From: Calditrichia bacterium
GTDB lineage: Bacteria > Calditrichota > Calditrichia > JAJRVZ01
NCBI GenBank assembly: GCA_963765585.1
Contig: CAVXXB010000003.1
Span: 38,025 to 102,024 of the forward strand
Direction of reading: 5' to 3'
DNA length: 64,000 nt
Both the position numbers and the translations under genes were made by a program. Under the pieces are notes generated by a model. The model did not search any database and was not told where the DNA came from. It saw only the letters and a list, made by a program, of their open reading frames with translations. Shown here one piece after another: positions 19,904 to 52,705 of this stretch. Numbering within the stretch: the first letter of the stretch is position 1; the number at the start of each line of letters is the position of its first letter.

Positions 19904-22108
19904 ATGATGATACGGTTTTTAATCGGTGTAACATTTCTACTTCTATTTTTTTCATGCCAGGAAAAGGAAGAAATATTTATTCCGGTTATCAAACTGGATA
20001 ATCAGGATAAAGTATTCACATTTACAAATAAAAGCTCCGGTTTTTATCTTGGCAGAACACATTCCGAAAATCCATCCACGGGCTATGGCTGGATAGTAAA
20101 TGGGATTAATTATCTGCGAGACTATCAAATAGTCATAAATAATCAGATATTGCAAAGAGACTCCGTTCAGCATGTAAGTTATTATCCACATCAGCTCATC
20201 CGTGAGTATGGTAATGGTTTGCTCGAATCGTTTACCCTGCTTGACTCACTCGATGCCATTGTTTGGCAAATCACGACTCCGGATCCTAAAATGCAACTGG
20301 CATTTATTCCGGTTATAGGTGATTCATTTGCACAGAATAGAATCCTGAATAATGAGCATGATTCTTTATTTATCTCACCGGAAGAGCCGAATCCTGAAGC
20401 AGGTAATTTCGGGAACCTTGTTTCCGGCTTTCGCTGGCTGCAAATATCTCCACAACGTGCAGCCATTTTTTGCGTGTTAAATACCAGTAGTGATAAAGTT
20501 AAGAGTGATCTCGGCTTGCTGGCAAAAACTTATGAAAAAAATATTTCAGATCGGCGGGAGCGGATAACAAAATTTTTATCCATAAATGATGTAGTCACAA
20601 ATATTCCGGAAATCACAGATGCCATCCAATGGGCGCAAATTTCTCTTGATGCTCTGGTTTCGGAAAAAACGGATACCGGCATTTGGGCAGGAATACCTGA
20701 TGTTCCCAAATATCGGGGAAGAGATTCTTTCATTTCTCTTACTGGCGCATTCCTGTGCACGGGAAAATTTGATCAGGCCAGGCAGATACTATCAAAATTT
20801 GCTAAAAATCAGTTAACGAATTCAGATGATACCTGGTTTGGCAGGATTCCCACACAAATATCCAAACATGAAATCTCTTATAATGGTGCTGATGTCACCT
20901 GGTGGTTTATACGCGATGTATATGAGTATATTCTTTACAGTGGAGACACAGAATTTGCGGCAGAAATATTTCCTACAGTAAAAACTGCTCTGATGGGTGC
21001 CCTCAGATACCGGATGGATGAGAAATTCCTTCTGCGTCACCAGGAACTCGAAACATGGATGGGCGGGTATGATTTTCAGTTATCACCAGTACGTCGAGGT
21101 AACCGCGCAGTTGAGATTCAGGCCCTATGGTATACCGCGCTGCAAATAGGATCCAAACTCGCCAACCTGAATGGTGAGAAATCCTTATCAGAGCATTGGA
21201 TAACCATTGCCCGCGAGACAAAGAAAAATTTTCTATCTTACTACTGGAATGATTATAGTTTCCGCATGTATGATCATTTAAAACCGGATGGCAGTACAGA
21301 CAATATGATTCGCCCTAATCAAATATTTACGGTTACCATGCCGGATCTTCCCGGTATTGAACCCTTAGTAAGTGATGAAGCACAGGCATATGTAACAAAC
21401 CAGGTTACAAATAAATTGACATTTCGTTTGGGGGTATCTTCACTGTGGTTAAAATCTTCTGATTTTAATGCATCAGTTGTCAGCGGGACAGATCAGGATG
21501 AAAATACGATCAATCAATATGGGGTAATCTGGCCATGGCTGGCGGGACCCGTGATATCCGCCCTGTCTTCCTGTAATTATGATTATCTGATGTTCGAACT
21601 GTTTTATAATGAAGCCATTCAGATTCTTGATTGGGATGCGATTGGTAATTTTCACCAGCTAATGGCGCCTCCGACAGAGACCGGACAGATAAATCCTGTA
21701 ATTGCCGGTTCGGTATCGCACGCTAAAAGCCTGGCCGAATTTACCCGTAATTTTTATCAGGATATAATTGGATTTAAACCGAACGCGTTGGTTAATGTCG
21801 TCCAATTTAAGCCGGTATTCACGGAAGAACTTTCATTTATCAGTGCAAACTTACCCATGGCGGGCCAACTTATTCATTTTGAGGGTGAAAGAAGTGAGCA
21901 GCTGACTTCCTTTAATATAAGCGCAATAAATATTACGGACACTCTGAGAGTGATTCTGAATTTTCCCGGATATGACAGATCCTATTATAATTTAACCCGG
22001 TCCGAACCAGGTATTGTAATTCAATACGAGAATGCCGACCGGTTTAGGTATCGTAAATATGATAATTTGGATTGGTTTTTTGTACAACTTAGCCTTTTAT
22101 CCGATTAA
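19904..22108 (+). CDS. Amylo-alpha-1,6-glucosidase / glycogen-debranching-enzyme-like (GDE_C family) lipoprotein
   Basis: Lipobox-like signal (LLFFSC). The C-terminal region resembles the GDE_C six-hairpin glycosidase domain (AVEIQALWYTALQIG, QIFTVTMPDLPG). It lies adjacent and convergent to glgP. Confidence 0.6.
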   Translation: MMIRFLIGVTFLLLFFSCQEKEEIFIPVIKLDNQDKVFTFTNKSSGFYLGRTHSENPSTGYGWIVNGINYLRDYQIVINNQILQRDSVQHVSYYPHQLIREYGNGLLESFTLLDSLDAIVWQITTPDPKMQLAFIPVIGDSFAQNRILNNEHDSLFISPEEPNPEAGNFGNLVSGFRWLQISPQRAAIFCVLNTSSDKVKSDLGLLAKTYEKNISDRRERITKFLSINDVVTNIPEITDAIQWAQISLDALVSEKTDTGIWAGIPDVPKYRGRDSFISLTGAFLCTGKFDQARQILSKFAKNQLTNSDDTWFGRIPTQISKHEISYNGADVTWWFIRDVYEYILYSGDTEFAAEIFPTVKTALMGALRYRMDEKFLLRHQELETWMGGYDFQLSPVRRGNRAVEIQALWYTALQIGSKLANLNGEKSLSEHWITIARETKKNFLSYYWNDYSFRMYDHLKPDGSTDNMIRPNQIFTVTMPDLPGIEPLVSDEAQAYVTNQVTNKLTFRLGVSSLWLKSSDFNASVVSGTDQDENTINQYGVIWPWLAGPVISALSSCNYDYLMFELFYNEAIQILDWDAIGNFHQLMAPPTETGQINPVIAGSVSHAKSLAEFTRNFYQDIIGFKPNALVNVVQFKPVFTEELSFISANLPMAGQLIHFEGERSEQLTSFNISAINITDTLRVILNFPGYDRSYYNLTRSEPGIVIQYENADRFRYRKYDNLDWFFVQLSLLSD

Positions 22109-22124
22109 CCTTTTCCCCTTTTTG

Positions 22125-24677
22125 TTAATCCAACCATTTAATTAACCGCACCTCATAGGGATTAAATAAGTCTGGATGAGTTGCCATCACACGGCAATTA
22201 ATATGATAAGACCCGTCTTTTGCGACTTTCACAGCTGCCCGGTATTCTTTAACACCGTCTTCTGTTTCAGCAACCATGCCCATTGTTACGGTCTGCATAT
22301 CCTGATGCCCACGAAACGCATCCTGCCGTTCCAGAATGACCTCGGCTGTAATATCTGATTGTTCTATTCCTTCGGATTTAATCAAAAGTACAATTTCCCG
22401 CTTTTCGCCAGGTGAAAGTACTCGCCGATCTTCATCCATTTTATTTCCATTTTTCAGTTCAAGACGAACTTCCGGCCACAAACGTGTCAACCGGTTGCGC
22501 CACTTTGAAAAACGATCCAGTTCGCGGTATTCCTCCTGGGCATATCTCTCAGATCGTTTCATCGCCGGCATATAATATTGATTGACATAATTCCACACCA
22601 TTCTATGGGCGCTAAAATCGGTTATTGCAGAATGAAAGGCATGTTTCACCATTTGTATCCATTTGTGGGGGATACCATCCTTATCACGCTCATAGAATAG
22701 GGGTATCAATTCATTTTCCAAAATATCATAGAGTGATTCACTATCAGCTGCATCCTGTTGTTCGTGATTGTCATAATGACCTTCTGATCCAATGGCCCAT
22801 CCGTTTTGCTTATTATATCCCTCGATCCACCACCCATCGAGAATACTAAAATTGACGCCGCCATTAATAGGCACTTTTTGTCCGGAAGTACCACTGGCTT
22901 CCAACGGTCTTCTTGGCGTGTTCATCCAGACATCAACACCGGAGACCAGAACCCGGCCCATATTCATATTATAGCCTTCAACAAAAACGATTTTACCCTT
23001 AAAGCCCTCTTCTTTTGCGTATTGATTTAACTTTCGGATTAAATCTTTACCAGCATCATTTGCAGGATGAGCCTTACCGGCAAATAATATTTGCACCGGT
23101 TTATCTTTATTTGCCATAATTTTTTTGACTCTTTCCGGATCTCGAAAAAACAATAATGCACGTTTATATGGTGCAAAACGGCGGGCAAAGCCGATAGTCA
23201 AGGCATCCGGATCAAGGATATCTTCTGCTTCCGGATATCCGGCATTGCCTTCGCCATATCTTTCGATTCGTATTTTATAGTATCTGCGCAAATGGTCAAT
23301 CTGATCTGCACGCATGACCTGAATTTTTTCCCAGAGTACCTCATCGGGAATCTGATAAAATTTATCCCAATATTGCTGGTTTAAAATATTTTCACGCCAG
23401 TCATCGCCAAAATATTCATCAAGTAATTTTATCATTTCACGATGCAACCAGGTAAAGGTATGCACACCGTTGGTTACGTGACCAATAGGAATTTCATGTG
23501 TCGGTAAGCCCGGCCATACTTTTTGCCACATTCCTCTGGAAACCTCACCGTGTAATTTGCTAACACCATTGGCCTGACCGGATAGGTTTAGTGCCAGAAC
23601 CGTTAGTGAAAAATTCTCATGCTCATGAATATTGGTATTGCGACCTAAATCAAAAAACTTTTCATGAGAAATTTCAAGTTTTGGCCACATATGTTTGAAA
23701 TATTTTTCTATCAAATCAAATTCGAAGGCCTCATTGCCCGCCGGGATCGGTGTGTGTGTTGTAAATGTGGTTGAAGCACGGACATATTCCAACGCCGTTT
23801 TATAATCCATTCCATGGTTCATCAGGTTTGTAAGACGCTCTAATCCAAGGAATGCGGAATGGCCTTCGTTCATATGGTATACACTTGGGTTATATCCCAT
23901 TTCCTTTAATGCGCGCATACCGCCAATACCAAGAATAATCTCTTGTTGGATTCTGGTTTCCCTACTACCGCCATAGAGACTATGAATAATTTCCTTATCT
24001 TCATCACTATTAGCATCAACAGTGGTATCCATCAAAAAGACTGAGACACGTCCAACTTTTACTTCCCATATTTTAAGATAAAGATTGTGATCCAGCAAAG
24101 GGACACTAACCAACAGTGGTGTTCCATCCTGATTTTTCACCAGCCGGCATGGAAGTCTTTCGGGATCCAATACATCATATATTTCCACCTGCTCACCGTT
24201 TTCATTTATCTCCTGCTGAAAGTAGGCATGTTTATACATTAACCCGAAGGCAATAAACGGTAATCCAAGATCGCTGGCAGCTTTGGTATGATCGCCGGCG
24301 AGGATTCCTAATCCACCGGCATAATTAGGTAACGATTCATGAATGCCATATTCCGCACAAAAATAGGCCACCAAATGATCGCTCATTTTAGGAAAGTTCT
24401 TACTGAAGGTGGTATCTTTTTTCTCTAAATAATTTTGTAGTCGCTTCCAGCTTTTCCGCAACTTTCCAACAAATACAGTATCATTGGCCAGTTCTTCCAA
24501 CCGTTCTGGAGTTATTTCCAATAGCGTTTCAACCGGATTTCTGCCACGTGAGCGCCACAGATCAACATCCATTTCACGAAAAAGATCTCTGACATCCGGA
24601 TTCCATGCAAACCACAGATTATAAGCAAGGTCTTCAAGTTTCTCGAGATTTTTTGGTAAATTTATTTCATAACTCAT
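22125..24677 (-). CDS. glgP: Alpha-glucan phosphorylase (GT35, maltodextrin/glycogen phosphorylase, alpha-glucan-family type)
   Basis: HMNEGHSAFLGLERL and the TNGVH motif. The K of the FAGKAHP motif is the pyridoxal-phosphate lysine context. 850 aa. Confidence 0.85.
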   Translation of the reverse strand: MSYEINLPKNLEKLEDLAYNLWFAWNPDVRDLFREMDVDLWRSRGRNPVETLLEITPERLEELANDTVFVGKLRKSWKRLQNYLEKKDTTFSKNFPKMSDHLVAYFCAEYGIHESLPNYAGGLGILAGDHTKAASDLGLPFIAFGLMYKHAYFQQEINENGEQVEIYDVLDPERLPCRLVKNQDGTPLLVSVPLLDHNLYLKIWEVKVGRVSVFLMDTTVDANSDEDKEIIHSLYGGSRETRIQQEIILGIGGMRALKEMGYNPSVYHMNEGHSAFLGLERLTNLMNHGMDYKTALEYVRASTTFTTHTPIPAGNEAFEFDLIEKYFKHMWPKLEISHEKFFDLGRNTNIHEHENFSLTVLALNLSGQANGVSKLHGEVSRGMWQKVWPGLPTHEIPIGHVTNGVHTFTWLHREMIKLLDEYFGDDWRENILNQQYWDKFYQIPDEVLWEKIQVMRADQIDHLRRYYKIRIERYGEGNAGYPEAEDILDPDALTIGFARRFAPYKRALLFFRDPERVKKIMANKDKPVQILFAGKAHPANDAGKDLIRKLNQYAKEEGFKGKIVFVEGYNMNMGRVLVSGVDVWMNTPRRPLEASGTSGQKVPINGGVNFSILDGWWIEGYNKQNGWAIGSEGHYDNHEQQDAADSESLYDILENELIPLFYERDKDGIPHKWIQMVKHAFHSAITDFSAHRMVWNYVNQYYMPAMKRSERYAQEEYRELDRFSKWRNRLTRLWPEVRLELKNGNKMDEDRRVLSPGEKREIVLLIKSEGIEQSDITAEVILERQDAFRGHQDMQTVTMGMVAETEDGVKEYRAAVKVAKDGSYHINCRVMATHPDLFNPYEVRLIKWLD

Positions 24678-31008: not shown

Positions 31009-31146
31009 AAACGTAATTAGGAATTGGGAATTGGGAATTAGGAACTTGTAATTTTTTTGCTATAATCACCTGTGTGTAAAATGTCAAATTCCCAATTACA
31101 AATTACAAAGAACCAATAACTAATTCCCAGTTCCAAATTACGTTTT
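31009..31146. repeat. ~55-bp inverted repeats built from GGGAATT heptamers flanking a 28-bp core containing TATAAT
   Basis: Left arm: aaacgtaattaggaattgggaattgggaattaggaacttgtaattt. The right arm reverse-complements to aaaacgtaatttggaactgggaattagttattggttctttgtaatttgtaattgggaatttg. Core: tttgctataatcacctgtgtgtaaaatgt. Confidence 0.7.
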
Positions 31147-31519: not shown

Positions 31520-32482
31520 ATGTGGGTTTCACTAAGTATTATTTTGGTAATCATATTTCTGGTGATATTGGAATATCGTATCCGAAAACCCGATCAGTTT
31601 ATTCTCTTTGAATCAGAAGGAAAAGTTAAGAGACGTAAAGCCCGCTTTTATCCCCGGCACTTCAGTCTGGCTCTTCCTGCCACAACACATTCAATTTCCT
31701 TAAAAGTAGAAACTGAGGCCAGGGGGAAATTACCTATCATTGTATCACTTGCTGTAACCATTGCCGCCTCAGCAGAACATCTTTCTGCTTTAATCCGCGT
31801 GGGTGGTTGGAAAAAAGATGCGGTGATCAAAGCCGGAAAAGAACTGGAAGTACTGCTGCAATCTGCCATTTCGGAACATTGTGAAAAATATGAGATAGAA
31901 GATCTTTCAACAGAAGCTCTGAATAAGCAATTAAATACCAAACTGGGAAAATCAGTTGCCGATCTGGGCATTAACATTATCTCTCTAAGTATTCAGGCCG
32001 TTGATCCAGTCGATGATGAAATCGCCGAAGCGATGCAGCAACGTGAAGCCAGCCGCATTCTTGAACAGACCGAGGCCGAAAAACAGAGAGCCCGGGTCGC
32101 GGCAACAAAAGCAAAAATCGACGCCGATGAAAAGATTGCACTGGCCGAACATGATCTCGATTTGAAAAAATTCAAATTACAGGAAGCACATCTCGCCAGA
32201 GAAAATGATATTACTAACCAGAAAGTGAAAGAAGATTTGAAACGACGCGAAATGCAACTTGATTTTGAAAAACAAGAGGTCGAATTATTGAGTAAAAATC
32301 CGGAACTCATGGTGCTCAGTCCGCAATTAACGCGCCTGGCTGAAGCCAGTCAGAATCTTAAAAATGCCCGGACGGTAGTATCACTCTCGCCACAACAAGC
32401 ATCACAAGGCGGTCAGATTCTTGATCTGATCCAGGATTTTCTGGGAGGAATGGCCAAGGGACAGGGGAAGAAGAAGAATTAG
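31520..32482 (+). CDS. Flotillin-like / SPFH-domain membrane protein with coiled-coil C-terminus
   Basis: N-terminal TM helix, a band-7-like middle region, and a long EA-rich coiled coil (EQTEAEKQRARVAATKAKIDADEK...). 320 aa. Confidence 0.6.
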   Translation: MWVSLSIILVIIFLVILEYRIRKPDQFILFESEGKVKRRKARFYPRHFSLALPATTHSISLKVETEARGKLPIIVSLAVTIAASAEHLSALIRVGGWKKDAVIKAGKELEVLLQSAISEHCEKYEIEDLSTEALNKQLNTKLGKSVADLGINIISLSIQAVDPVDDEIAEAMQQREASRILEQTEAEKQRARVAATKAKIDADEKIALAEHDLDLKKFKLQEAHLARENDITNQKVKEDLKRREMQLDFEKQEVELLSKNPELMVLSPQLTRLAEASQNLKNARTVVSLSPQQASQGGQILDLIQDFLGGMAKGQGKKKN

Positions 32483-32605
32483 GAATGAGGAGTGAGGAGT
32501 CAGAAATTAGAATATTTCAGATAGTGCTTTTTGCTCTGGAAACAAATATTAAATATTGATAACACAAAAGTTCATAGTATAAAATTCATACTTAACAACC
32601 CATTC

Positions 32606-35600
32606 ATGCCGAATAATAAAGACCTACATGATTTGTTTCAGCTCCGGGCGTTGAAAAGTGCCAAGGTTTCTGAAATTAGTGAGGCCACCGCCGCTTCTCC
32701 GGTTCCTGTTGCAGAACGAGTAAATTTACATATTGGGAATCCGGTTCAGGATGGACGCCTGGTTGATTTGTATTATCAGATGGTGACTGGAATTCAACCG
32801 GGGCCAAATCCGGAATTAGAATTATCAGGATGGGATACTGAGCATAAAGCGTGGCTAGAACTCATCAGAAATTCCATAAGAAAAAGTGTCCCCTATTTGC
32901 CACGCGGCGGGTATTTACGGTCTGATCCCGGAGATGTAATCACCTTTTTTAAAAGCTGGCTTACAAAGGATCAACCTGAACCACTGGAATATGATTTTGG
33001 TGAAAAATCGGGAAAAAGAGAATGTATAATCGCCAGCGGCGGCATTAACGAAGTTTTACGTGTTATACTGCATTCCATATCGGACTATCTGATTCACAAA
33101 CCGGCCCACATTATTTTTTCCGGGATTAAACCATCCGGGTGTCTAAAGACATTTAAGGCACTCCAATTGTCGTATCTTAATTTAAAAGAGGAGCATCAGC
33201 TAAAAATATTATCCGGTTACTTCAATGCCAAAAACGATGAAGTCGTTTACCTGATCCTCGGACATCACATATCTGAATTAATGCGTCGTGAAATCCGGCA
33301 AATATGCCTGCAACACCCATTGATGGTAATCGAAGCAAACGATACACCAAACCACCTTTCCCTGGCCCGTGAAGCAAAAATGCGTGATCGGGTAATTCGT
33401 ATTTTGTCTCCTGCTACGATAATTCCCAATAAGACGAGACTACCGATTTCTTTTATTGCCGGAAATGCTGACTATTTGCGTGTATTCGAAAATGTACATT
33501 TTGAATTAAAGGGTACCCCGCCTGCCGCGGAGGTCGAACTCCTGTCATTTCTGATAAACAATAAAGAGGCTCCGGAAACTCTGCCGTTACCCGATGCCAC
33601 AGGTGAAGAATCGGGATATTACACAACAATGGACCGGAATCTGGCGAACTCCGTGAAGTTACATGAACGCATAGGATTGCAGTACACCGATCGAACTGCC
33701 ACAATTGAGAAAATCAGCAATAAATATTTTAGCAGAACAGACAGAATACGTGACCGTTTTTTAAAAAAGTACCCGGCATCTTTACGGGCTGATGATCCCT
33801 ACGCAAATCAGGAATCGTCTCAGGTCTTAGCCGAGTTTTTGACCGATATCCGGACAAATACAAATCTGAACCAAATTTATGAGTCATTTCTGTCCGCCTT
33901 TATTACCCATCATCCACAATATGATTTCGACAAATGCTTTGTATCAAGCGGCTCCTCACGAACCGCACTGAGTCTTCTGGGTTTTCAATGTGGCATTAAA
34001 ACGGCCATTGTGCCTGATCTGAGCTGGACATATCACCACTGCTTCCCGGAAGTAAAAACTGTTCCCCTGACAGAAGATCTGATGCTCGATGAACAGTCTG
34101 TTTTAGACCAGGTCCGGGATGTATCGAACTCGTCGTCATCCGGTCAGTTGGCATTAGTGCTTAATAATCCTCACAATGCCAGCGGCAAAATTTTTGATGA
34201 ATCTGTACTGAAAAATTTATTAATAAAACTACTTACGCAGAAAATATTTGTGATTGACGATTTGTCATATGAGAATGTAGCACCGGCAAAAAACCTGAGG
34301 GGACCCAAAACATTGAAGCAGATCGCCCTCGATCTGCGGAAAACAGGTGTTCTCAATGATCTGGATTTGCAATACCTGATCAGCGTTCACTCACTTTCAA
34401 AGACTGATTGTTTTGCCGGGGGCAGACTATCGGTTATTGAAATTTTACATCCCGGATTACACAGCGAGTATAGCGAAATTAACAATAATATCGTGCCAAA
34501 CTACATGGCAATATTTCTGGCGTATATGTTCTACCGCAACCCGCCAGATCAGGTACGGACCTTCTGGACTTTACGCAATGAGATCATGGATGAACGCATG
34601 AGAGCGCTCGAGCAGGCAGAAAATGAACTGCCGGCAGACCGTAACCTGTTCAATATCAAAATTATCCGTCCTATGGGCAGCATGTATCCACATCTGATTG
34701 TCACAGATCTTCCTAAAGGTATATCTCTGGATTGGCTGGCATCCGGGTTGGCACGTCGTGGTATTGGACTGGTTCCGCTTACCACATTTAGCCGCACCGG
34801 AAAAGGATATGAACTGGCCAGAAAAACCTTTCGATTAACTCTGGGAGGTAGTTCAGATCATGAAGAACTATTCCGGAAGACTCGACGAGTATTAATCGAT
34901 CTGAATCGTCTGATCAAAGAGGAATCAACCAGATATAATTTAAATCTCTTTCCGCTGCGTAAATTAAAATATCGCCCGGAGAAATATTTTCCGGAAGCTA
35001 TTAGCATGTGGAATGATATTACAGATAAAGTAATTGTCGACGCGCAATTACTGTTTGAAAAAAAATGCCGGCAAATACCAGCCCTGTCCGGTGACGATTC
35101 ACTGGCCAAAAAATTTAGCACTGATTATTTACCATCCCGTCTGGAGATTCTTAAAACCAGGTTGGATGATCAGATAAACATTAAATCTGCATTCTTGTCG
35201 GAGATATCAGAGAATCCGCATCATCAGATCGAAGCCCTCTTAAAACAGGAACTATATAAAGAAAATATTGAAATTCGTGCGGAGAATTTTCGTCACCGGA
35301 TGTTTGACAGAACGGTACATCCCACACAAAATTACGCATTAAAAGTTGATTTGACAGCAAACCTGTTATTTGAGGCTATTCTTAGCGGGCAACTTCCGGA
35401 CCGGCAGACAATTGGTCATCTCATATCTGAATTAGTAGCCGAATACCTGGGTCTTAATGTTCCCATTCGCGCAGTGGAAGAAGGAAATGAACTGGTCATG
35501 GATCTAAAGGCCGTATTATTGGCCGAGGAACATACCCGCTGGAATTCCATGGAATCCGTTACGCCATACTTGCTTTCCTTCTGGGGCGACTGGGATGGCA

Positions 35601-38017
35601 GTACAAGACCATCCGGACAGGGACATCTTCTGGTTTCTGCTGTTTTACTTGAAAATGTTCGCCAACTGTCTGAGCTGGTAAAGTCTTTAAACAAAAACTC
35701 ACCGGAAGTCCATATCCCGGCAGACATATTAGCCGAAATTCAAAATCTGGATTCACGAACCATAAAATTCTGGAAATTGTTTCATCGCATCAATATTTTG
35801 ACCAATCAACTGGAAAAACGATATCGCAGCGTCTTACCCCACAATTTTAGTAGTTCTAAGCTGAGAAAGATTGCATCACGTTTTAAAGTGGTCCGGGATC
35901 CTATCAGGGCGTTATGGCAACATAATGACCGTCTTGAAAAAAAGATGCTTGATCTGCGCAAGCAACGCCATGATTCTATGGAATATTATTTTGCCCTAAA
36001 TAAACGTCTGCGTAAACTCTTATTTGAAAATATATCCTTATTCGGTGCATCATTCCATAATCCCCGATTTGCAATAAAAGCCGGACTATACCGCAGTCCA
36101 TTACGACGATTCAATCTAACACCCCGGATCCATCAGAATATGATCACATCAACAGATCAGTTCGCGATCGACACCACAGTTCATAACATGATGGAAATAA
36201 ATGAAATCTCCGGGAAATACGGAAATCCGGGAATGATTCAGGCGTTACAAATTAGTATGTCAGACCGGCCCGAGGCATTAATCGCACTCGACCAGAAGAT
36301 CCGATCTTACCGGGAAAATTTATTACGCGAGCACCCGGATCTTCAGGTGCCAAATATTTGGCTCATTCCCCTGTTTGAGGATGTCGAAACGGTACAAGGT
36401 TTAGGAAAATATCTGGACCGGTTATGGGAATACAGTATTGCCAGTAGAAGAATCGATCAGGATACGGCTGACCGGTTTGCTGAAATGATTTGTGAAATTT
36501 TCATTGCCGGCTCTGACCTGAGTCAGCAAGTGGGTCAATCAACTGCTGCATTTTTATTTAAAGATGCCAAATTGAAAACCATACAATGGTTAGCTGAAAA
36601 GGGTCTTAGCGACAGAGTTCGTATCAAACTTGGCAGCGGTGAACCGATGCAACGCCAGGGTGGCTATTATAAATCGGCACTAACCAGAAATCCATTTATA
36701 AATAGCCGCAATTCACGGATACGCATGACACAAAATTTGAGTCCGGCCGCACAAAAGAGCACCGAATATGCCAAGAGCCCCTTGCAGGGTATTATGTCCA
36801 CCGGTGATTTAAGAACATTTCAGAGTCGTGTTTTTGAAAAAATAAAATTTATTCCAACGGCAGAGCGAGCACGCCTGCTGCATCATATAATGAAAGCACA
36901 GGAATTCTATCAGAACGAACTTTTCCGGATAAGCGAACCATTTCTTGAAACACGACTGGCCTTCGAAGAGAGAGGATTTCAGGAACTGGAGCGATTATCA
37001 TTTGGACAACGAGATCCTATTTATTCAGATTTCACGGATCTGGTGACGCAAAATTTCCGCCGAATATTGTATGGCAGCGATGATGATGTAGTGGGTATTC
37101 ATGTTATCTCATATTTTATTTCACGGACCACACCAGCGCTTCGCGACCGTCCAACGGTAAGACCTACCCGGGAAGTGACCTCTGACCGTGGACAGAGAAT
37201 TATTCAGCGTATTGCCCAGACATTACCCATGTCACGTCATGGCACGCTATTAAGGGCTATCGGACATAATCGTGCCCAGACTCTCATTCTTGGTATAAAT
37301 CAGCTAACTACGGGCTTATTTCGTGCCCTTGATGAATTTGCAGCTACGCAAAGCACCTATGAAGATGGCTTGGCTTTGATAAATGACAGAATTTTACCAA
37401 ATCTTCCCGTTCAGGAAATATTGCATAGCCTGCGAATTTATCACGAACCAAGCCATACATATCTGAAGAAAATGGCACGGGGGTTTCCTGCAGAAAATTC
37501 TGCGTTTCTCTATCTACGCGAAGAATTGGATAGTATGAATAAATATATCGGGATTTTTCAGAAAGAATTTCTGAGACGTCACGGTCTGAATATAAATGAA
37601 TTCTTCGATGGCAATATGTTCAAGCCTGATCTGTTACCCACAATCAGACCATCTCTGGCCGTTTTACTTCAACCTGATCTCTTTAATACATCCGAAGAAA
37701 AACTGATTGAACAAATTAGTGGAAAAGTCGACAGTGACTGGAACGAGGAAATTCGTCCGCTTCTGGAATTGCCATTAGCCATACAAAACTGGCGTCAACA
37801 GACATGGGAATTAATTGAGAAGCCCATTTTTACACAGGTGAAAAGTTTTGTTGAATTGGCCCACGCACTTAATACACTAACTGCCGGACAATCGCAAAAG
37901 GATGCCGGTCTGGCGATCAACCCGTCAAAGATGTTAAGAATGAGTTCAAATATTACCTCCCTGCTATCGGGTGTACGTGATGATTCGATGCGTCAATTCC
38001 TTAGCCTCTGTGGTTGA
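32606..38017 (+). CDS. Giant multidomain protein: class-I aminotransferase-fold (PLP) domain fused to a divergent phosphoenolpyruvate-carboxylase-like domain
   Basis: Aminotransferase motifs sit at canonical spacing: NNPHNASG (cf. NPxNPTG), IDDLSYE ~30 aa later, SLSK (the Schiff-base Lys) ~45 aa later, then GGRLS (cf. GxRxG). PEPC-like motifs sit at E. coli-like spacing: TVHPTQ (TAHPTE); ~363 aa later IPLFEDVETV (VPLFETIEDL); ~37 aa later IAGSDLSQQVG (GYSDSAKDAG); ~42 aa later GSGEPMQRQGG (GRGGSIGRGG). The protein ends in Gly, as PEPC does. The track ORF starts at a TTG at 32531; the first ATG is 32606. Confidence 0.6.
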   Translation: MPNNKDLHDLFQLRALKSAKVSEISEATAASPVPVAERVNLHIGNPVQDGRLVDLYYQMVTGIQPGPNPELELSGWDTEHKAWLELIRNSIRKSVPYLPRGGYLRSDPGDVITFFKSWLTKDQPEPLEYDFGEKSGKRECIIASGGINEVLRVILHSISDYLIHKPAHIIFSGIKPSGCLKTFKALQLSYLNLKEEHQLKILSGYFNAKNDEVVYLILGHHISELMRREIRQICLQHPLMVIEANDTPNHLSLAREAKMRDRVIRILSPATIIPNKTRLPISFIAGNADYLRVFENVHFELKGTPPAAEVELLSFLINNKEAPETLPLPDATGEESGYYTTMDRNLANSVKLHERIGLQYTDRTATIEKISNKYFSRTDRIRDRFLKKYPASLRADDPYANQESSQVLAEFLTDIRTNTNLNQIYESFLSAFITHHPQYDFDKCFVSSGSSRTALSLLGFQCGIKTAIVPDLSWTYHHCFPEVKTVPLTEDLMLDEQSVLDQVRDVSNSSSSGQLALVLNNPHNASGKIFDESVLKNLLIKLLTQKIFVIDDLSYENVAPAKNLRGPKTLKQIALDLRKTGVLNDLDLQYLISVHSLSKTDCFAGGRLSVIEILHPGLHSEYSEINNNIVPNYMAIFLAYMFYRNPPDQVRTFWTLRNEIMDERMRALEQAENELPADRNLFNIKIIRPMGSMYPHLIVTDLPKGISLDWLASGLARRGIGLVPLTTFSRTGKGYELARKTFRLTLGGSSDHEELFRKTRRVLIDLNRLIKEESTRYNLNLFPLRKLKYRPEKYFPEAISMWNDITDKVIVDAQLLFEKKCRQIPALSGDDSLAKKFSTDYLPSRLEILKTRLDDQINIKSAFLSEISENPHHQIEALLKQELYKENIEIRAENFRHRMFDRTVHPTQNYALKVDLTANLLFEAILSGQLPDRQTIGHLISELVAEYLGLNVPIRAVEEGNELVMDLKAVLLAEEHTRWNSMESVTPYLLSFWGDWDGSTRPSGQGHLLVSAVLLENVRQLSELVKSLNKNSPEVHIPADILAEIQNLDSRTIKFWKLFHRINILTNQLEKRYRSVLPHNFSSSKLRKIASRFKVVRDPIRALWQHNDRLEKKMLDLRKQRHDSMEYYFALNKRLRKLLFENISLFGASFHNPRFAIKAGLYRSPLRRFNLTPRIHQNMITSTDQFAIDTTVHNMMEINEISGKYGNPGMIQALQISMSDRPEALIALDQKIRSYRENLLREHPDLQVPNIWLIPLFEDVETVQGLGKYLDRLWEYSIASRRIDQDTADRFAEMICEIFIAGSDLSQQVGQSTAAFLFKDAKLKTIQWLAEKGLSDRVRIKLGSGEPMQRQGGYYKSALTRNPFINSRNSRIRMTQNLSPAAQKSTEYAKSPLQGIMSTGDLRTFQSRVFEKIKFIPTAERARLLHHIMKAQEFYQNELFRISEPFLETRLAFEERGFQELERLSFGQRDPIYSDFTDLVTQNFRRILYGSDDDVVGIHVISYFISRTTPALRDRPTVRPTREVTSDRGQRIIQRIAQTLPMSRHGTLLRAIGHNRAQTLILGINQLTTGLFRALDEFAATQSTYEDGLALINDRILPNLPVQEILHSLRIYHEPSHTYLKKMARGFPAENSAFLYLREELDSMNKYIGIFQKEFLRRHGLNINEFFDGNMFKPDLLPTIRPSLAVLLQPDLFNTSEEKLIEQISGKVDSDWNEEIRPLLELPLAIQNWRQQTWELIEKPIFTQVKSFVELAHALNTLTAGQSQKDAGLAINPSKMLRMSSNITSLLSGVRDDSMRQFLSLCG

Positions 38018-38367
38018 ATTTCTGACTCAATTTCCGGAATCCTCAGATCAGGTTCCAATCAATATTTTGCGTGCCCTGGAGGATGTTGAAACAATCATCA
38101 AAATTGAAGAACAGGCATTAAGCAAAAAAGAGCAGGATGCATTGCGATTTTATATTTTACAGATGGCACGCCTTGCCGGTGAGAATGGGTAGGGACGTAT
38201 TACATGTGTCCTGTTTGTGGTAATTGTAAAGAATTCCATTTTTTTTAATAAAAATGTCATCTCGAAGAGATCTTCCAGGATTTTTTACACATAGATAACG
38301 AGAAGATTCCTGCGGAATGACTTCTATGATTGACTTGAAGTTTTAAGGTTTATTAGTGGAATATTTT

Positions 38368-39714
38368 CTATCCGGGAACGGATGGGTTCAAATCAAACAC
38401 GCGCATCTTTTCGCGGAGTGTTGTTCGAGAGATATTCAGAATTTCTGCTGCACGAGATTTATTTCCATTAGTACGTGATAACACTTTTTTAATATGTGCT
38501 CTTTCAATATCCTGTAATGTACAGTTTCCCAACACATCTATTTCGGCCGGATTCTTGCGTGCGTCCAAATCAAGAAAAGGCAAAGTCTCAACCGCAATAC
38601 TTCCTTTGCGTGTAATCAGGACTGCCCGTTCAATCAATAATCGCAATTCCTCAACATTTCCCGGCCAATGATATTCTTTTATCTTTTTTTCCGCCTCTGG
38701 CATCAAATCTTTTACTTTATGATCAAACTTCCGGTTAAACAGTTGAATATAGAAATAGGCGATTGGTAAAATGTCTGCCTGGCGCTGACGTAATGGCGAT
38801 ATTACCAGTTCGAATGCACGCAGGCGGAAAAATAATTCGCGGGAAAAATGATCATAATTCAAAAACGTTTCCAGATCGAATTCTGTAATTCCGATTATTC
38901 TGGTGTTTGATTTCTGGTCTATTTGAGAATTAATTCTTCTAAAATTTCCAGTATCCAGATAAAAAAGCAATCTATGTTGCAGTTCACTATCCAGGGTTTC
39001 TATATGCGTCAGGACCAGTGTACCATCTTGTGAAATCTCAAGATAGCCAGCCGGTTCAGCATTTTTATCTGGCGAATTTTTCTCCTCACCAAATAATTGT
39101 TTGAGCAATTCTTGTGAAGAAACCATTTTACAATTAATTACATGAAACGGCTTTGTCGCATCATTACTTTTAAAGTGTATCAATCGGGCAATATATTCTT
39201 TTTCCGTTCCCTTTTCACCGCGTATTAAACAATGGGTTTTTCGGGATTTAGAAATCACATTAACAAAATCATTAATCTGCTTAAGTGTTTTACTTTCTCC
39301 AACCAGCGGCAGATCATGTTCATTGCTTACAGATTCGGCGTAAGATTGAAAACGGGACCGGGTCGGAATTGCGGTATTGTAAAGCAATAACTTTAGATTA
39401 TGCTTATTGGGAGGGGTAACTATTTCTTTAATCATTCTGGGTTGCACTGATTTAGGCAAACGAACTGCGGTCTGAGCCACATTAAAAATAGCCAAACCCG
39501 TTTTTGAATTATTAGCCAGATAACGGGTTAATCCTTTGGGGAATTTCCCCTTGGAAAACTCAGGTTGCCAGATAATCAGATCCAGATCCATTCTTACAAA
39601 CTCAGGACTATCTATATCTGAATGAGTAAGGATTTGTGTTTGAATATCTGATTCTTCGCTTAGCTTTTGAAAGCCACTAAAGCTCTTAATGGCCAGACCA
39701 ATACGTAAAACCAT
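38368..39714 (-). CDS. Sigma-54-activator (bEBP) homologue with degenerate AAA+ motifs, no GAFTGA, and a C-terminal Fis-type HTH
   Basis: The central domain aligns end to end with bEBPs: VINC, LFGEEK, WPGNVEEL. But Walker A is GEKGTEKE (vs GESGTGKE), GAFTGA is replaced by NSPDKN, and Walker B GTLFLDEI has become GTLVLTHIETL. C-terminal HTH: RAAEILNISRTTLREKM. Confidence 0.7.
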   Translation of the reverse strand: MVLRIGLAIKSFSGFQKLSEESDIQTQILTHSDIDSPEFVRMDLDLIIWQPEFSKGKFPKGLTRYLANNSKTGLAIFNVAQTAVRLPKSVQPRMIKEIVTPPNKHNLKLLLYNTAIPTRSRFQSYAESVSNEHDLPLVGESKTLKQINDFVNVISKSRKTHCLIRGEKGTEKEYIARLIHFKSNDATKPFHVINCKMVSSQELLKQLFGEEKNSPDKNAEPAGYLEISQDGTLVLTHIETLDSELQHRLLFYLDTGNFRRINSQIDQKSNTRIIGITEFDLETFLNYDHFSRELFFRLRAFELVISPLRQRQADILPIAYFYIQLFNRKFDHKVKDLMPEAEKKIKEYHWPGNVEELRLLIERAVLITRKGSIAVETLPFLDLDARKNPAEIDVLGNCTLQDIERAHIKKVLSRTNGNKSRAAEILNISRTTLREKMRVFDLNPSVPG

Positions 39715-39873: not shown

Positions 39874-41457
39874 TCATAATGCTTTAATTGCTTCCATAAT
39901 AGCTTCTTTGGTAAGACCAAAATGCTCCCACACTTCATAATGACCTTCAGAAGGAGCGATTCTTGGATCTGTGATACCAACATGCGCCATGGGTGTGTCA
40001 AATTGATTTCCATATCCGGCTACAAGATTGGCAAAACCACGCAAACCGGTTGTCGTTGTTCCGATTAAACCGTCTTCGATTGTAACAACTCCCTTTGAAT
40101 ATTTTTTAATCGTTGTTTCAATAAAATTTTCAGGTAACGGTAAACCATTAATAATAATCACATCCGTCGGTAAACCATCAGTGTTTAATTCCTCTGCCGC
40201 ATCTGCAGCCAAATGGGCCGGCGCACCCAGGGCCAAAATCACACGTCGTGCATTCGGGTATGTGCGAAAGATGGTTACCGGATTCCATTCCTGATCTTTT
40301 TTCCACAACGCTTCAGAACCACCTTGCTGACTGAGTACCGGCAAATTATCCCTCGGTATGCCAATAATATGAGCGCCATAAAATTCGGCCGCATCTTTTA
40401 CAGCCAAAAAGGCCGCACACGCATCAGCCGGGGCATAAAAGCGATGCAAATATGGAAGATAACCAATTGCCAGCGTAATCCAATCCAGACTCCATCCGGA
40501 AAAATGGTCCCGTCCTGTACACGCACCCACATGAGAAAGGTGAAATGTAACATTCAAACCTTCATTTATACCATTCAAATTTCGCTGATATCGCCACATT
40601 TCAAATCCTTCGCGGGCAATACCTTCATAAAAAGCGGCAAAAGTGGAAAACACATTAAACTGTGGCCCATGGCTGGCCACTGCCAATCCATTTGCCATTA
40701 AAGCCGATGCCTGTTCCTCAATACTCATTTCAAACTGATGATTTTCATCAAGATACGTACGCGCTTTATCCAGTTTGGTAGATGGATCCAGATCACAACT
40801 GACAATAAACACAGATTCAGGATGCGATTGTGCCACGGCTGCATAGGCTGACTGAACACCCGCCCGGGGGCTGACTTTACTGTCTACCTCAGGTAAATTT
40901 ACACTACCAAGTATTTCTGGGTTGATAACCAGATTTTTTGTTCCTGGAGCAGAACGGGCGGTGGTAACAACCTCCAGTTTATCTGATTCTTCCAGCGACT
41001 TAAGAGCAGTCTTTTGATCGTCAGACATCTGGAGCATTGGATTATTGAGCACCGCCTGTAAATCACGTCCCTGCATATGACCGTCATGATGTCCTTTACC
41101 CCCACTGAGACCATTGACAAGAAATACACATTCGAGCATTGATTGCACATCACCAAAACTCATCAAGGCGCCTGGAATCCAGATTTCTGTATCCATCTTA
41201 ATTTGATTTTTCCCGGCAAGCTCAGCGACCTCAGCGGAAATACCATATTTTTCCCCGAGAACGTTTAAATCAACTTTTTCCTTAGAACCCGAAGAATATC
41301 CGGCTGGATAAATCAGACTCGGCCGACCCGATTGTGCCATTTTAAATGCTTCTTTATATGCCTTAAACAATCCCGCTTTATCATGAATGCTTTCTATCTC
41401 CAGAATTGAAATTCCCAGCGATTCGATAATAGGACGTGGATCTTTATCCATGATCAT
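39874..41457 (-). CDS. Transketolase-like protein, C-terminal portion (rest of the ThDP/PP domain, plus Pyr and C-terminal domains)
   Basis: IESIHDKAGLFKAYKEAFKMAQSGRPSLIYPAGYSSGS aligns with the TK segment DGHD..ai..Ai.eAk..dkPtlI.ckT.IGfGsP. HVGACTGRDHFSGWSL and GAHIIGIPRDNLPVL align with the Pyr domain. Start taken at ATG 41457 (MIMDKD...), 1 nt after the upstream stop. Confidence 0.65.
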   Translation of the reverse strand: MIMDKDPRPIIESLGISILEIESIHDKAGLFKAYKEAFKMAQSGRPSLIYPAGYSSGSKEKVDLNVLGEKYGISAEVAELAGKNQIKMDTEIWIPGALMSFGDVQSMLECVFLVNGLSGGKGHHDGHMQGRDLQAVLNNPMLQMSDDQKTALKSLEESDKLEVVTTARSAPGTKNLVINPEILGSVNLPEVDSKVSPRAGVQSAYAAVAQSHPESVFIVSCDLDPSTKLDKARTYLDENHQFEMSIEEQASALMANGLAVASHGPQFNVFSTFAAFYEGIAREGFEMWRYQRNLNGINEGLNVTFHLSHVGACTGRDHFSGWSLDWITLAIGYLPYLHRFYAPADACAAFLAVKDAAEFYGAHIIGIPRDNLPVLSQQGGSEALWKKDQEWNPVTIFRTYPNARRVILALGAPAHLAADAAEELNTDGLPTDVIIINGLPLPENFIETTIKKYSKGVVTIEDGLIGTTTTGLRGFANLVAGYGNQFDTPMAHVGITDPRIAPSEGHYEVWEHFGLTKEAIMEAIKAL

Positions 41458-41458
41458 C

Positions 41459-42067
41459 TTATTTGATCCGCTGAAGCTGGATACCATTACGATGCATAAT
41501 AAAAGTGATCGGAGCACCATGCAAATCCGCCCCATTAAAGCCATTCAACGCCTGACCGGATATCCAACCCGCATCGCCACAATGGGTAACAACCCAGGCA
41601 TCCTGTCCGTAAATGGCCTTTTTCCCCAGGGCTTGTCCTGCGGCGGCAGGAACCATCACACCAAGACGCCCACCATTTAACTGCGTACCTCCCGGGACCC
41701 AGGCCACATGGCCGGCAATATCCAATCCCTGGCGAAAATTTTGTATCACATATTCCGGATCCAGATAACCGTATGCCGCAAGTGTGCCATAGTATCCAAT
41801 ACTGGTATGGGCGTTTTCAATCGTATATTCTTTTTTCTCAAAATCGACTACGGCAAGTGTTAGCGCCAGAGCAGAAATTAAATCCAACCCGCCACCCATA
41901 TGATCCACTTCTTTTAATTTGGCCAGTTCCGAGACTGCTTTCACTGAAGTCCGGTCGGCATTAATTTCTAATGCACGCAGGGTATTAACCTGCATCCGCA
42001 GATAAATCATCCACTTTGGTAATATCGATTTTAAAGGGTAAGTACATGCTCGAAATAAGTTTTTCAC
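41459..42067 (-). CDS. Transketolase-like protein, N-terminal portion (ThDP-binding region ending just after the GDG-x27-N motif)
   Basis: NFRQGLDIAGHVAWVPG (cf. FRQ..SkTPGHPE) and HCGDAGWISGQALNGFNGADLHGAPITFIMHRNGIQL (cf. GDGcLMEGiSHEA...DDNgISIDG). It ends in TAA, immediately followed by g-ATG of the next ORF. Confidence 0.65.
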   Translation of the reverse strand: MKNLFRACTYPLKSILPKWMIYLRMQVNTLRALEINADRTSVKAVSELAKLKEVDHMGGGLDLISALALTLAVVDFEKKEYTIENAHTSIGYYGTLAAYGYLDPEYVIQNFRQGLDIAGHVAWVPGGTQLNGGRLGVMVPAAAGQALGKKAIYGQDAWVVTHCGDAGWISGQALNGFNGADLHGAPITFIMHRNGIQLQRIK

Positions 42068-52100: not shown

Positions 52101-52705
52101 TCAATAATCAGATCATCATCCATCATCGCTTTCAGGTCCTCATCAATCAATGCCTCAATTTTTTGAACTTCATGGGATGTACGAAATCCATCAAAAAAGT
52201 GAATCATTGGAATACGTGTTTTTAAAGTAGCCGCATGACTGATCAGTGTAAAATCCATGGCCTCCTGTACGGAATTTGATGAAAGCAGTCCAAACCCCGT
52301 AGCCCTGACAGCCATTACATCACTATGGTCACCAAATATCGACAACGCATGTGCAGCCACAGATCTTGCGGATACATGAAATACCGTTGGTGTAAGTTCT
52401 CCGGCAATTTTATACATGTTAGGGATCATCAACAATAGCCCCTGAGAAGCCGTAAAGGTCGTTGTCAAAGCACCGGTTTGAAGTGCGCCATGAACAGCGC
52501 CCGATGCACCCCCTTCACTTTGCATCTCTGTTACTATGGGAATGGTTCCCCAAATATTCTTTCTTTCTTCTGCAGAATACGCATCCGCCCACTCACCCAT
52601 GTTTGATGATGGGGTAATCGGATAAATGGCGATAACCTCATTAATTTTGTGTGCCACCAGCGCGACTGCTTCATTTCCATCAATAGTCAACTTCGGTCGT
52701 TTCAT
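49142..52705 (-). CDS. nifJ: Pyruvate:ferredoxin (flavodoxin) oxidoreductase, single-polypeptide form
   Basis: 1187 aa. Two 4Fe-4S ferredoxin motifs (CIQCNKCAFVCP, CTGCALCVEVCP), a ThDP-binding region (GGDGWAYDIGYGGLDH) and conserved PFOR domains I to VI. Confidence 0.95.
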   Translation of the reverse strand: MKRPKLTIDGNEAVALVAHKINEVIAIYPITPSSNMGEWADAYSAEERKNIWGTIPIVTEMQSEGGASGAVHGALQTGALTTTFTASQGLLLMIPNMYKIAGELTPTVFHVSARSVAAHALSIFGDHSDVMAVRATGFGLLSSNSVQEAMDFTLISHAATLKTRIPMIHFFDGFRTSHEVQKIEALIDEDLKAMMDDDLIIEHRKRALSPDHPVLRGTAQNPDVFFQCRETINPFYDACADIVQETMDKFAKVVGREYKLFEYYGPKDAERLIIMMGSGAETTHETVDHLSAGGEKVGLLKVRLYRPFSIKHFISAIPSTVKSIAVLDRTKEPGGAGEPLYIDVITALSEAQTDGNLPTAEMPKIIGGRYGLSSKEFTPAMVKAVFDELNKDKPKNHFTVGINDDVTHTSLDYDPGYSTEKDDVVRAMFYGLGADGTVGANKNSIKIIGEGTDNFAQGYFVYDSKKSGSMTISHLRFGPNPIHSTYLVSTANFIGCHQFVFLEKNDVLATAVDGAVFLLNSPYPHEETWDKIPKKVQQEIIDKKLKMYIIDAYDVAKEAGMGSRTNTIMQTCFFAISGILPKDEAIAKIKDSIKKTYGAKGDEVVQKNYEAVDTTLANLHEFKVPQTADSKVELPPVVPDNAPDFVKQVTAEIIAGRGDQIPVSMFPIDGTFPTATTQWEKRNISLEIPVWDEEICIQCNKCAFVCPHAVIRPKVYNKDLLKDAPETFKSAKARGKEYTDDMMYTLQVAPEDCTGCALCVEVCPVKNKKEIRLKAINMADQPPLRETEKENWNFFLDIPELDRKEVTANTVKGSQVLQPLFEFSGACTGCGETPYVKLVSQLFGDRTIIANATGCSSIYGGNLPTTPWAQNKDGRGPSWSNSLFEDNAEFGLGFRLTIDKHTEYARELLKGMNGGVDKKLADAILNADQTGEAGIIEQRERVESLKEVLAKVDSSEAKQLHSLADMLVKKSVWIMGGDGWAYDIGYGGLDHVLASGKNVNVLVLDTEVYSNTGGQMSKATPRGAVAKFAASGKPIKRKDLGMLAMSYGNVYVAQVAMGSSDAQTVRAFIEAEAYDGPSIIIAYSHCIAHGINMRKGLDQQKLAVDSGYWPLYRYNPDMAAEGQNPLKLDSKAPSIDFQTYAYNETRYRMLTKSHPEAAKKLMKQAKQDVKEKWQLYSGMATLDYSNS

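Follow-up and report, generated by a model that had tools for sequence, protein, structure and literature searches.

Here I describe a giant gene of a Calditrichia bacterium, lying in a 64,000-nucleotide stretch of contig CAVXXB010000003.1 (the window, in whose numbering all positions are given), that encodes on one chain, and always in this order, a lysine-less domain resembling the fold of pyridoxal phosphate (PLP) enzymes, a class-I aminotransferase and a divergent TIM barrel of the phosphoenolpyruvate carboxylase (PEPC) fold. I classify the C-terminal domain as a new fused variant inside the PEPC fold family, and I lean, tentatively, toward a protein that would carry phosphoenolpyruvate (PEP) by way of oxaloacetate to aspartate. 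The PEPC types recognised so far are the archaeal one of 55-60 kDa and the bacterial/plant one of 90-110 kDa, neither of them fused (PMC8100219), and the fusion of an aminotransferase with a pathway neighbour, together with channelling, is known from the plant/fungal BIO3-BIO1 protein (PMC9309667). A PEPC-aminotransferase fusion is absent from both the 2022 review of aminotransferases (PMC9309667) and the 2020 review of the PEP-pyruvate-oxaloacetate node (PMC8100219), and a full-text literature search returned nothing relevant on such a fusion or on 'PEPC-like' proteins.

One chain, three parts

An earlier note on this DNA, made from its letters alone (the sequence-only reading), had described an uninterrupted open reading frame (ORF) of 5.4 kb whose single polypeptide of ~1800 aa joins an aminotransferase to a PEPC-like domain. 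The frame is there at 32531..38017 (+), unbroken over 1828 codons counted from a TTG, and its translation holds, in the order given, every string that was quoted (NNPHNASG, DDLSYE, SLSK, GGRLS, TVHPTQ, IPLFEDVETV, AGSDLSQQVG, GSGEPMQRQGG). Both claimed parts of the architecture stand, but the N-terminal 330-aa lysine-less PLP-fold-like domain was overlooked, and the limits of the gene need correcting: the likely start is the ATG at 32606 (MPNNKD...), which is the start in the public gene call and in homologues and gives 1803 aa as assembled, and the corrected product, of 1861 aa, has its true stop at 38191-38193. The features on which the argument draws are as follows.

32606..38193, + strand: full giant-protein gene, 1861 aa after removal of one base near 38005; as assembled it stops at 38017
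32606..33595, + strand: N-terminal domain, residues 1-330 (AlphaFold2 (AF2) model, topology, conserved motifs)
33803..34945, + strand: class-I/II aminotransferase domain, residues ~400-780 (Pfam, PDB profile match, Foldseek)
34400-34402, + strand: Schiff-base Lys599 in the SLSK motif
34946..38190, + strand: divergent PEPC-fold domain, residues 781-1861 of the corrected protein (AF2, Foldseek, hhalign; eight barrel-strand motifs recognisable)
38003..38009, + strand: frameshift site 'AGCCTCT', one base too many relative to the in-frame FLSSVVEF of homologues
38192..38212, + strand: terminator-like hairpin right behind the corrected stop (consensus scan, weak evidence)
39874..42067, - strand: fused 2-oxoacid dehydrogenase E1 gene (E1_dh + Transket_pyr + Transketolase_C), split into overlapping ORFs 41459..42067 and 39874..41544

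A homologue search over 5.8 billion proteins, clustered at 90% identity, returned at least 638 homologous clusters, the best 120 of which are 1749-1904 aa long, cover 94-100% of the query at 46-76% identity and carry as public annotation at most 'aminotransferase class I/II'. Public names of family members speak of the aminotransferase part only, and neither the first 330 aa nor the last 1080 aa have a model in Pfam 2025 or NCBIfam 2026. When a profile of the C-terminal 1081 aa was run over 1.84 billion 50%-identity representatives, 238 matches came back, among them about 36 full-length representatives, all of which have the C-terminal domain at roughly residues 780-1860; the others are contig-end fragments, with the exception of one outlier, P0260. 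A scan restricted to a single genome for each species turned up the family in 175 of them, for the most part Calditrichota and Ignavibacteriota, with some Acidobacteriota. The best matches are Calditrichota metagenome-assembled genomes (83% and 57%), and the next-best are Ignavibacteriota, among them the isolates Melioribacter sp. OK-6-Me, Rosettibacter primus and Stygiobacter electus; the family is also present in Caldithrix abyssi, in Bryobacterales and other Acidobacteriota and in a few others. Among the 80 loci kept for comparison, each from a different species, 76 have all three protein parts, and in all 76 the order is identical. The protein appears to be single-copy, extends through whole lineages and is under strong purifying selection.

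The sequence-only reading had raised the questions of whether orthologues keep the fusion and whether the ORF might instead be an assembly chimera, a mis-join of separate aminotransferase and PEPC-like genes. The contig does have indel errors, with two frameshifts within 3.5 kb, but the 76 collinear loci come from different species and assemblies, the three isolate genomes among them, and therefore exclude a chimera; in addition, composition is even over the gene (GC 0.41-0.44) and every full-length representative is fused. Orthologues thus do keep the fusion, the comparative data rule out a mis-join, and the probability I would leave to one is practically nil.

One of those frameshifts lies in the giant gene itself. 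Homologues run for about 60 residues beyond the end of the assembled protein, to a C-terminus of the form ...ARLxGENG, and the missing tail is intact in the window in another frame (...SVVEFLTQFPESSDQVPINILRALEDVETIIKIEEQALSKKEQDALRFYILQMARLAGENG*, with the stop at 38191-38193). The closest homologue, P0002, follows frame 2 in tblastn until 38005 and frame 3 over 38001 to 38189, a switch accounted for by the one extra base in 'AGCCTCT', and when that base is deleted the product has 1861 aa, equal in length to P0002, and ends ...ARLAGENG. I take the truncation at 38017 to be, most likely, an indel introduced into the contig by sequencing or assembly, or else a lesion of very recent origin, and no part of the biology, because the ratio of nonsynonymous to synonymous substitution rates (dN/dS) against a Calditrichota locus (L004) is 0.06 in the 61 post-shift codons, read in the corrected frame, and 0.024 in the 821 pre-shift codons, because a hairpin follows the corrected stop, and because the E1 gene, 3.5 kb off, is a second frameshifted gene in the same contig (one undivided ORF of 752 aa at the syntenic locus L003, with a frame switch here at ~41471-41475). 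A programmed frameshift is rejected, as homologues are in frame at the same point. The final Gly to which the sequence-only reading had pointed as a PEPC-like ending is a coincidence of the truncated frame, although the corrected C-terminus also ends in Gly.

The C-terminal barrel

The AF2 model of the C-terminal domain (predicted local distance difference test, pLDDT, 84.7; predicted template-modelling score, pTM, 0.87) finds only PEPCs among its 28 best Foldseek matches in the PDB, the next being pyruvate phosphate dikinase and pyruvate kinase at E 0.14 or worse. Bacterial/plant PEPCs (Arabidopsis, maize, E. coli 1JQN) match at E 1.4e-10, and the archaeal-type enzyme 3ODM at E 9e-9 with a template-modelling score of 0.50-0.53 by target, the best length-normalised structural match. 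The sequence is far less forthcoming: PF00311 gives no match on the domain even at E 10, phmmer and hmmsearch find no PDB PEPC, BLASTP against E. coli Ppc is not significant, hhalign against the single E. coli Ppc sequence gives no signal in global or local mode, and no canonical PEPC is found among the best 150 of the 238 matches to the C-terminal profile. Among PEPC sequence models, just two give any signal on the fused family, PF14010, at E 0.043 in two of nine family members and below threshold, and TIGR02751, at E 0.046 on the window protein (12.6 bits vs a cutoff of 146).

What connects the domain to PEPC by sequence is the outlier mentioned above. P0260 is a stand-alone protein of 1038 aa (L095 6001-9117) that matches the fused-family profile at 4e-22 and itself passes the gathering score of PF14010 (PEPcase_2; 32.8 bits vs 25, E 3.6e-8), and together with P0266-P0269 it makes up a stand-alone family of 976-1038 aa, which amounts to 5 clusters in the 5.8 billion proteins, all from Logan assemblies (metagenomic). 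In hhalign, the fused family aligns with the stand-alone family over 861 columns (Prob 99.8, E 5.7e-29), and the stand-alone family aligns over 720 columns with a profile of bacterial PEPC that combines E. coli Ppc with 11 diverse plasmid-borne ppc genes (Prob 77.6, E 1.9e-5); the fused family compared directly with that profile reaches E 0.0064, and the merged fused and stand-alone profile E 3.7e-5 over 731 collinear columns, with a reversed-PEPC control at 0.066. In the direct alignment about ten hallmark blocks are collinear (fused family / E. coli Ppc):

RTVHPTQ / TAHPTE
FWGDWDGS / SWMGGDRDGN
ALQISMS / AYVISMA
IPLFED / APLFET
AGSDLSQQ / GYSDSAKD
KLGSGEPMQRQGG / FHGRGGSIGRGG
YFISRTTP..RDRPTVRP / YFRSATP..GSRPAKRR
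LLRAI / LRAIPW
QKEFLRRHG / QAELLHRSR
ARLAGENG (C-terminus) / AAGMRNTG (C-terminus)

Because of the bridging P0260 family, the profile-profile alignments and these collinear blocks, the C-terminal domain is shown from sequence to be homologous to PEPC, transitively through P0260, and it is nearer by sequence to the archaeal-type family, a point that the sequence-only reading overlooked. Its proposal that the last ~1000 aa are PEPC-like is upheld by a fold that matches PEPCs only and by the profile comparisons that agree with it, with the Pfam PEPcase model itself giving no match. Its remark that the blocks keep nearly the spacing of E. coli Ppc is fair for the four it quoted (His-Glu 353 vs 368, Glu-Asp 46 vs 37, Asp-Arg 46 vs 44), but the later spacings carry large insertions (165 vs 112, 311 vs 170).

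Conservation of the catalytic positions was scored in 104 homologues, with equivalences to E. coli Ppc taken from hhalign.

35318..35320, + strand: His905 in RTVHPTQ, equivalent to E. coli His138; 104/104, aligned by both hhalign routes
36377..36379, + strand: Glu1258 in IPLFED, equivalent to the metal ligand Glu506; 104/104
36515..36526, + strand: Asp1304-Gln1307 in AGSDLSQQ, the Asp equivalent to Asp543 (metal ligand) and the Gln at Lys546; D 104/104, Q 104/104
36635..36655, + strand: Gly-rich loop GSGEPMQRQGG, with Ser1344 at Arg581 and Arg1350 equivalent to Arg587; R1350 104/104
37148..37255, + strand: RDRPTVRP ... LLRAI, with Arg1515, Arg1519 and Arg1550 equivalent to Arg699, Arg703 and Arg713; each 104/104

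The two substitutions to which the sequence-only reading had drawn attention, of the first GRGG Arg by Ser and of the Lys of GYSDSxKD by Gln, are real: the Gln is invariant, and position 1344 (Arg581) is S, C or T. Position 1342 (His579) is L, M or F, Gly583 is Glu, and of the FHGRGGxxGRGG loop only Arg587 and the final GG remain. The Arg396 equivalent is ambiguous, being either R1136 (hhalign) or R1174 in 'LTPRIHQ', where predicted strand beta3 ends, and the allosteric aspartate-site residues Lys773 and Arg832 are not conserved in the fused family. The C-terminal Asn-Gly (GENG) is invariant in the family, and 12 of 12 reference PEPCs end in (T/S)G. Mutagenesis of the E. coli enzyme has shown that His138 and Arg587 are needed for the carboxylation step and that His579 is dispensable, and mutagenesis of plant PEPC has linked the Lys of GYSDSxKD to the handling of, or affinity for, bicarbonate. 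Since the His, the Glu, the Asp and four Arg are kept, and reading this against the mutagenesis, the barrel is expected to have kept its binding of metal and PEP, and turnover of PEP is probable.

Compared with the known types, the domain shares its fold and ~730 collinear columns with bacterial/plant PEPC (E. coli Ppc, 1JQN/1FIY, PF00311), and matches it in the blocks TAHPTE, SWxGGDRDGNP, YVISM, PLFE, GYSD, the GR587GG half of the loop, YFxxATP...SRPxKR, LRAI, LQxELLxR and the C-terminal Gly. It differs in being ~200 residues longer, in standing behind two PLP-fold domains (the first so assigned provisionally), in being always paired with an SPFH gene, in showing no BLASTP or HMM-versus-sequence similarity, and in having Lys546, His579, Arg581 and the allosteric residues changed. 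The archaeal-type enzyme (PepcA, 3ODM, PF14010, TIGR02751) is a stand-alone protein of 55-60 kDa (PMC8100219), whereas here the domain has ~1080 aa, ~120 kDa, and is always fused. The stand-alone PEPC-like proteins P0260 and P0266-P0269 are full-length homologues of the domain, with a common GxGE..(F/Q)RQ loop and C-terminal Gly, but they lack the aminotransferase part, do not stand next to an SPFH gene and keep the equivalent of Lys546 (GSDSSK), where the giant family has Gln. The domain stays below the profile thresholds and departs from two PEPC motifs, and is for that reason filed under neither PF00311 nor PF14010.

The N-terminal domains and the gene neighbourhood

That the core of the N-terminal half is a class-I aminotransferase, as the sequence-only reading proposed, is confirmed by Pfam and by structure. 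PF00155 (Aminotran_1_2) scores 25.2 bits over residues 429-746 (cutoff 19.7), its match beginning only at model position 51, and is precomputed on all of the best 120 homologues; the family profile finds yeast BNA3 in the PDB at 4e-10, plus many class-I aminotransferases; and the AlphaFold model of residues 1-785 (pLDDT 89.8, pTM 0.88) matches 1-aminocyclopropane-1-carboxylate (ACC) synthase, LysN and Thermus aspartate aminotransferase (AspAT) in Foldseek at E ~1e-15, with template-modelling scores of 0.65-0.70 and a root-mean-square deviation of ~3.5 A. N524, D551, D552, Y555, S598, K599, R607 and R743 are invariant in the 104 homologues, with roles assigned by motif analogy (Asp to the pyridine N, Asn/Tyr to O3', Arg to the phosphate, the C-terminal Arg to the substrate carboxylate). 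From this set of residues the domain looks like an active PLP enzyme working on alpha-amino and 2-oxo acids.

Class-I aminotransferases such as Thermus AspAT (1BJW), LysN (2EGY), ACC synthase (1YNU) and yeast BNA3 (3B46) have the same fold and the same PLP-site Asn, Asp, Tyr, Ser-Lys and Arg together with the distal Arg. The canonical enzymes are ~400-aa homodimers, whose active sites are built from two subunits, whereas the giant protein has a lysine-less PLP-fold-like domain ahead of the catalytic one on the same chain, which makes a pseudo-heterodimer probable. The first domain is marked by the conserved motifs VNxHIGNPVQD, PYxPRGG and ASGGxxExLR and by 44 invariant columns (24 species). 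Its order of strands and helices in the AF2 model (beta-alpha-beta-beta-alpha-beta-alpha-beta-beta-beta-alpha) is that of the catalytic large domain, with which hhalign aligns it in register though weakly (P 0.04). The catalytic Lys is not conserved in it ('LTPxxFSP' where the catalytic domain has 'HSLSK'), and two class-I-like N-terminal motifs (VNxHIGNP, PYxPRGG) sit in it without a counterpart in the catalytic domain, so that the GxP and Y...G motifs of canonical enzymes would be found in the giant protein's first domain instead. The assignment is provisional because the domain has no sequence match in Pfam, NCBIfam or the PDB, but a degenerate, lysine-less PLP 'large domain' of fold type I, a pseudo-aminotransferase, is its probable identity, and it may plausibly be a dead duplicate acting as the 'second subunit' of an intramolecular pseudo-dimer.

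Two neighbouring genes had been singled out in the sequence-only reading, a flotillin-like gene directly upstream and a degenerate regulator, similar to bacterial enhancer-binding proteins, on the convergent strand.

31520..32482, + strand: SPFH/Band_7 protein, 320 aa, membrane-anchored (Pfam Band_7 E 2.7e-11, 44.3 bits vs a cutoff of 23.6)
38368..39714, - strand, convergent: sigma-54 enhancer-binding protein (AAA+ Sigma54_activat, AAA_lid_14, HTH_8)

Both identifications hold, the second protein being a sigma-54 activator in whose N-terminal ~136 aa Pfam finds neither a sensor nor a receiver domain; what was overlooked is how strictly the first is conserved as a partner. The SPFH protein has, as read from its sequence, an N-terminal transmembrane helix and an E/K/A-rich coiled coil on either side of its SPFH domain, and in every one of the 69 evaluable loci its gene is the immediate upstream neighbour, on the same strand (42-59% identity). 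The SPFH family diverges at the rate of the giant gene (47-84% identity) on the same contigs, and the gap between the two genes has a median of ~36 nt across loci, with 5-8 nt in L002 and L003 and 123 nt here (32483..32605). On this comparative evidence, I take the SPFH gene and the giant gene to be a conserved two-gene operon. The 123-nt gap contains a sigma-70-like TTGATA-18-TAAAAT (32556-32585), and promoter-like sites in the region are no commoner than in shuffles. Upstream of the SPFH gene, the 560-nt intergenic region contains an imperfect, GGAATT-rich inverted repeat of 46 nt (31009-31054 / 31100-31145, 78% complementary), which gave spurious miRNA-precursor matches in Rfam and may be a regulatory hairpin, a terminator belonging to the divergent gene or a small repeat element.

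Beyond the SPFH gene there is no conserved neighbour: the sigma-54 activator, the E1 gene and a downstream phosphoglycerate mutase are syntenic only within Calditrichia. The activator is present in the Calditrichia locus L003 and absent beside the Melioribacter orthologue (L002), and because of that absence a functional tie to the giant gene is improbable; a link between the two was rejected, its synteny being confined to Calditrichia. Also rejected were a defence system (no PADLOC match) and a riboswitch-controlled operon (nothing credible in Rfam). Further away, the window encodes a single-chain pyruvate:ferredoxin oxidoreductase of 1187 aa at 49142..52705 (-) and a glycogen-metabolism pair, GDE_C debranching enzyme and DUF3417/alpha-glucan phosphorylase, at 19904..24677, so that the locus is surrounded by genes of central carbon metabolism; there is also a 614-aa ORF at 5690..7534 (+) with no Pfam match at E 1e-5. 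No canonical ppc is found among the large ORFs of the 64-kb window.

A proposed route from PEP to aspartate, and other readings

The reading to which I lean, at slightly less than an even chance, is that the giant protein converts PEP and bicarbonate to oxaloacetate in its barrel and the oxaloacetate to aspartate at its PLP site. PEPC makes oxaloacetate from PEP and bicarbonate, and the reading is suggested by the facts that fused enzymes usually run consecutive steps, that the products of PEPC-type enzymes are 2-oxo acids and thus of the substrate class of the aminotransferase, and that PEPC and AspAT are known to act in succession, as in C4 metabolism. The PEPC-like barrel would bind PEP and a divalent metal through its kept His, Glu, Asp and four Arg and would turn PEP and bicarbonate into oxaloacetate, a labile compound that the adjacent aminotransferase site would transaminate to aspartate with a donor such as glutamate. 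The N-terminal pseudo-subunit probably serves as an intramolecular 'dimer partner' that makes the aminotransferase site complete, which would place one aminotransferase site beside one barrel without homodimerisation of the aminotransferase, channelling would shield the oxaloacetate on its way, and the SPFH protein probably holds the enzyme at the membrane or organises it there. The genome papers on Melioribacter roseus (which has Pyc, Mae and Pck) and Caldithrix abyssi list no canonical PEPC.

Several points weigh against this. With Lys546 replaced by an invariant Gln, and with His579 and Arg581 of the Gly-rich loop lost, carboxylation with bicarbonate is not assured. The closest sequence relatives of the aminotransferase domain are kynurenine/methionine-type enzymes and not AspAT, and its amino-acid specificity is not readable from the sequence; the role of the N-terminal domain in a pseudo-dimer is based on AF2 topology and the P = 0.04 alignment only. 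M. roseus has pyruvate carboxylase and PEP carboxykinase, so that an extra route to oxaloacetate is not obviously needed, and the part played by the SPFH protein is explained neither by the PEP-to-aspartate model nor by any rival.

The changes on the bicarbonate side could also mean that the barrel acts on PEP or a related enol-phosphate without carboxylating it, either by releasing enolpyruvate/pyruvate, which might then give alanine, or by letting the enolate react with an electrophile other than CO2, which might give another 2-oxo acid. That the metal- and phosphate-binding residues are invariant, yet Lys546 is Gln and His579/Arg581 are lost in 104 of 104 homologues, where the stand-alone relatives keep the Lys, speaks for such an enzyme, and the ~200 residues by which the barrel domain exceeds E. 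coli Ppc point the same way. Against it stand the retention of His138 and Arg587, the residues specific to carboxylation, the waste of a high-energy bond that plain hydrolysis of PEP would entail, and a gene context that suggests no other electrophile, the SPFH gene alone being conserved; I consider it unlikely. Somewhat more doubtful to my mind is a PEPC-like domain that is a pseudoenzyme and serves regulation, ligand sensing or oligomerisation, joined to an aminotransferase with substrates that have nothing to do with oxaloacetate. Several canonical PEPC positions are substituted, the Pfam and NCBIfam PEPC models miss the domain, and the protein already holds one apparently dead domain in its lysine-less N-terminal PLP fold, but across phyla there is no variation at all at seven positions equivalent to catalytic or ligand-binding residues or at the C-terminal Gly, the PEPC-like part is conserved to the same degree as the aminotransferase (49% vs 50% identity; dN/dS 0.02), and Lys773 and Arg832 are not conserved, so that a retained allosteric function is not supported.

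One bolder idea, which I regard as rather improbable, is that the family is a third class of PEPC-fold enzyme, unrecognised until now, in which the altered bicarbonate-side residues and the obligatory coupling to a PLP site and pseudo-subunit amount to new chemistry, and not to PEPC and AspAT simply joined; possibilities here are that PEP is turned directly, with channelling, into an amino acid on a membrane platform organised by flotillin, or that an electrophile other than CO2 captures the enolpyruvate intermediate.

The fused family adds to the known PEPCs a very divergent version of ~120 kDa that the standard Pfam and NCBIfam models miss. If oxaloacetate is channelled as the PEP-to-aspartate reading has it, nature would have a route on a single polypeptide by which PEP and CO2 become aspartate, with a bearing on carbon-fixation engineering and on the handling of labile oxaloacetate, and both an intramolecular pseudo-dimeric aminotransferase and an obligatory SPFH/flotillin partner of a metabolic enzyme would be unusual. 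Cultured hosts exist in Melioribacter, Stygiobacter and Rosettibacter. For Ignavibacteriota, Calditrichota and some Acidobacteriota, present models of carbon and nitrogen metabolism may lack an anaplerotic or aspartate-forming step, and with a hidden PEPC the reconstructions of M. roseus and C. abyssi, which were drawn without one, would change.

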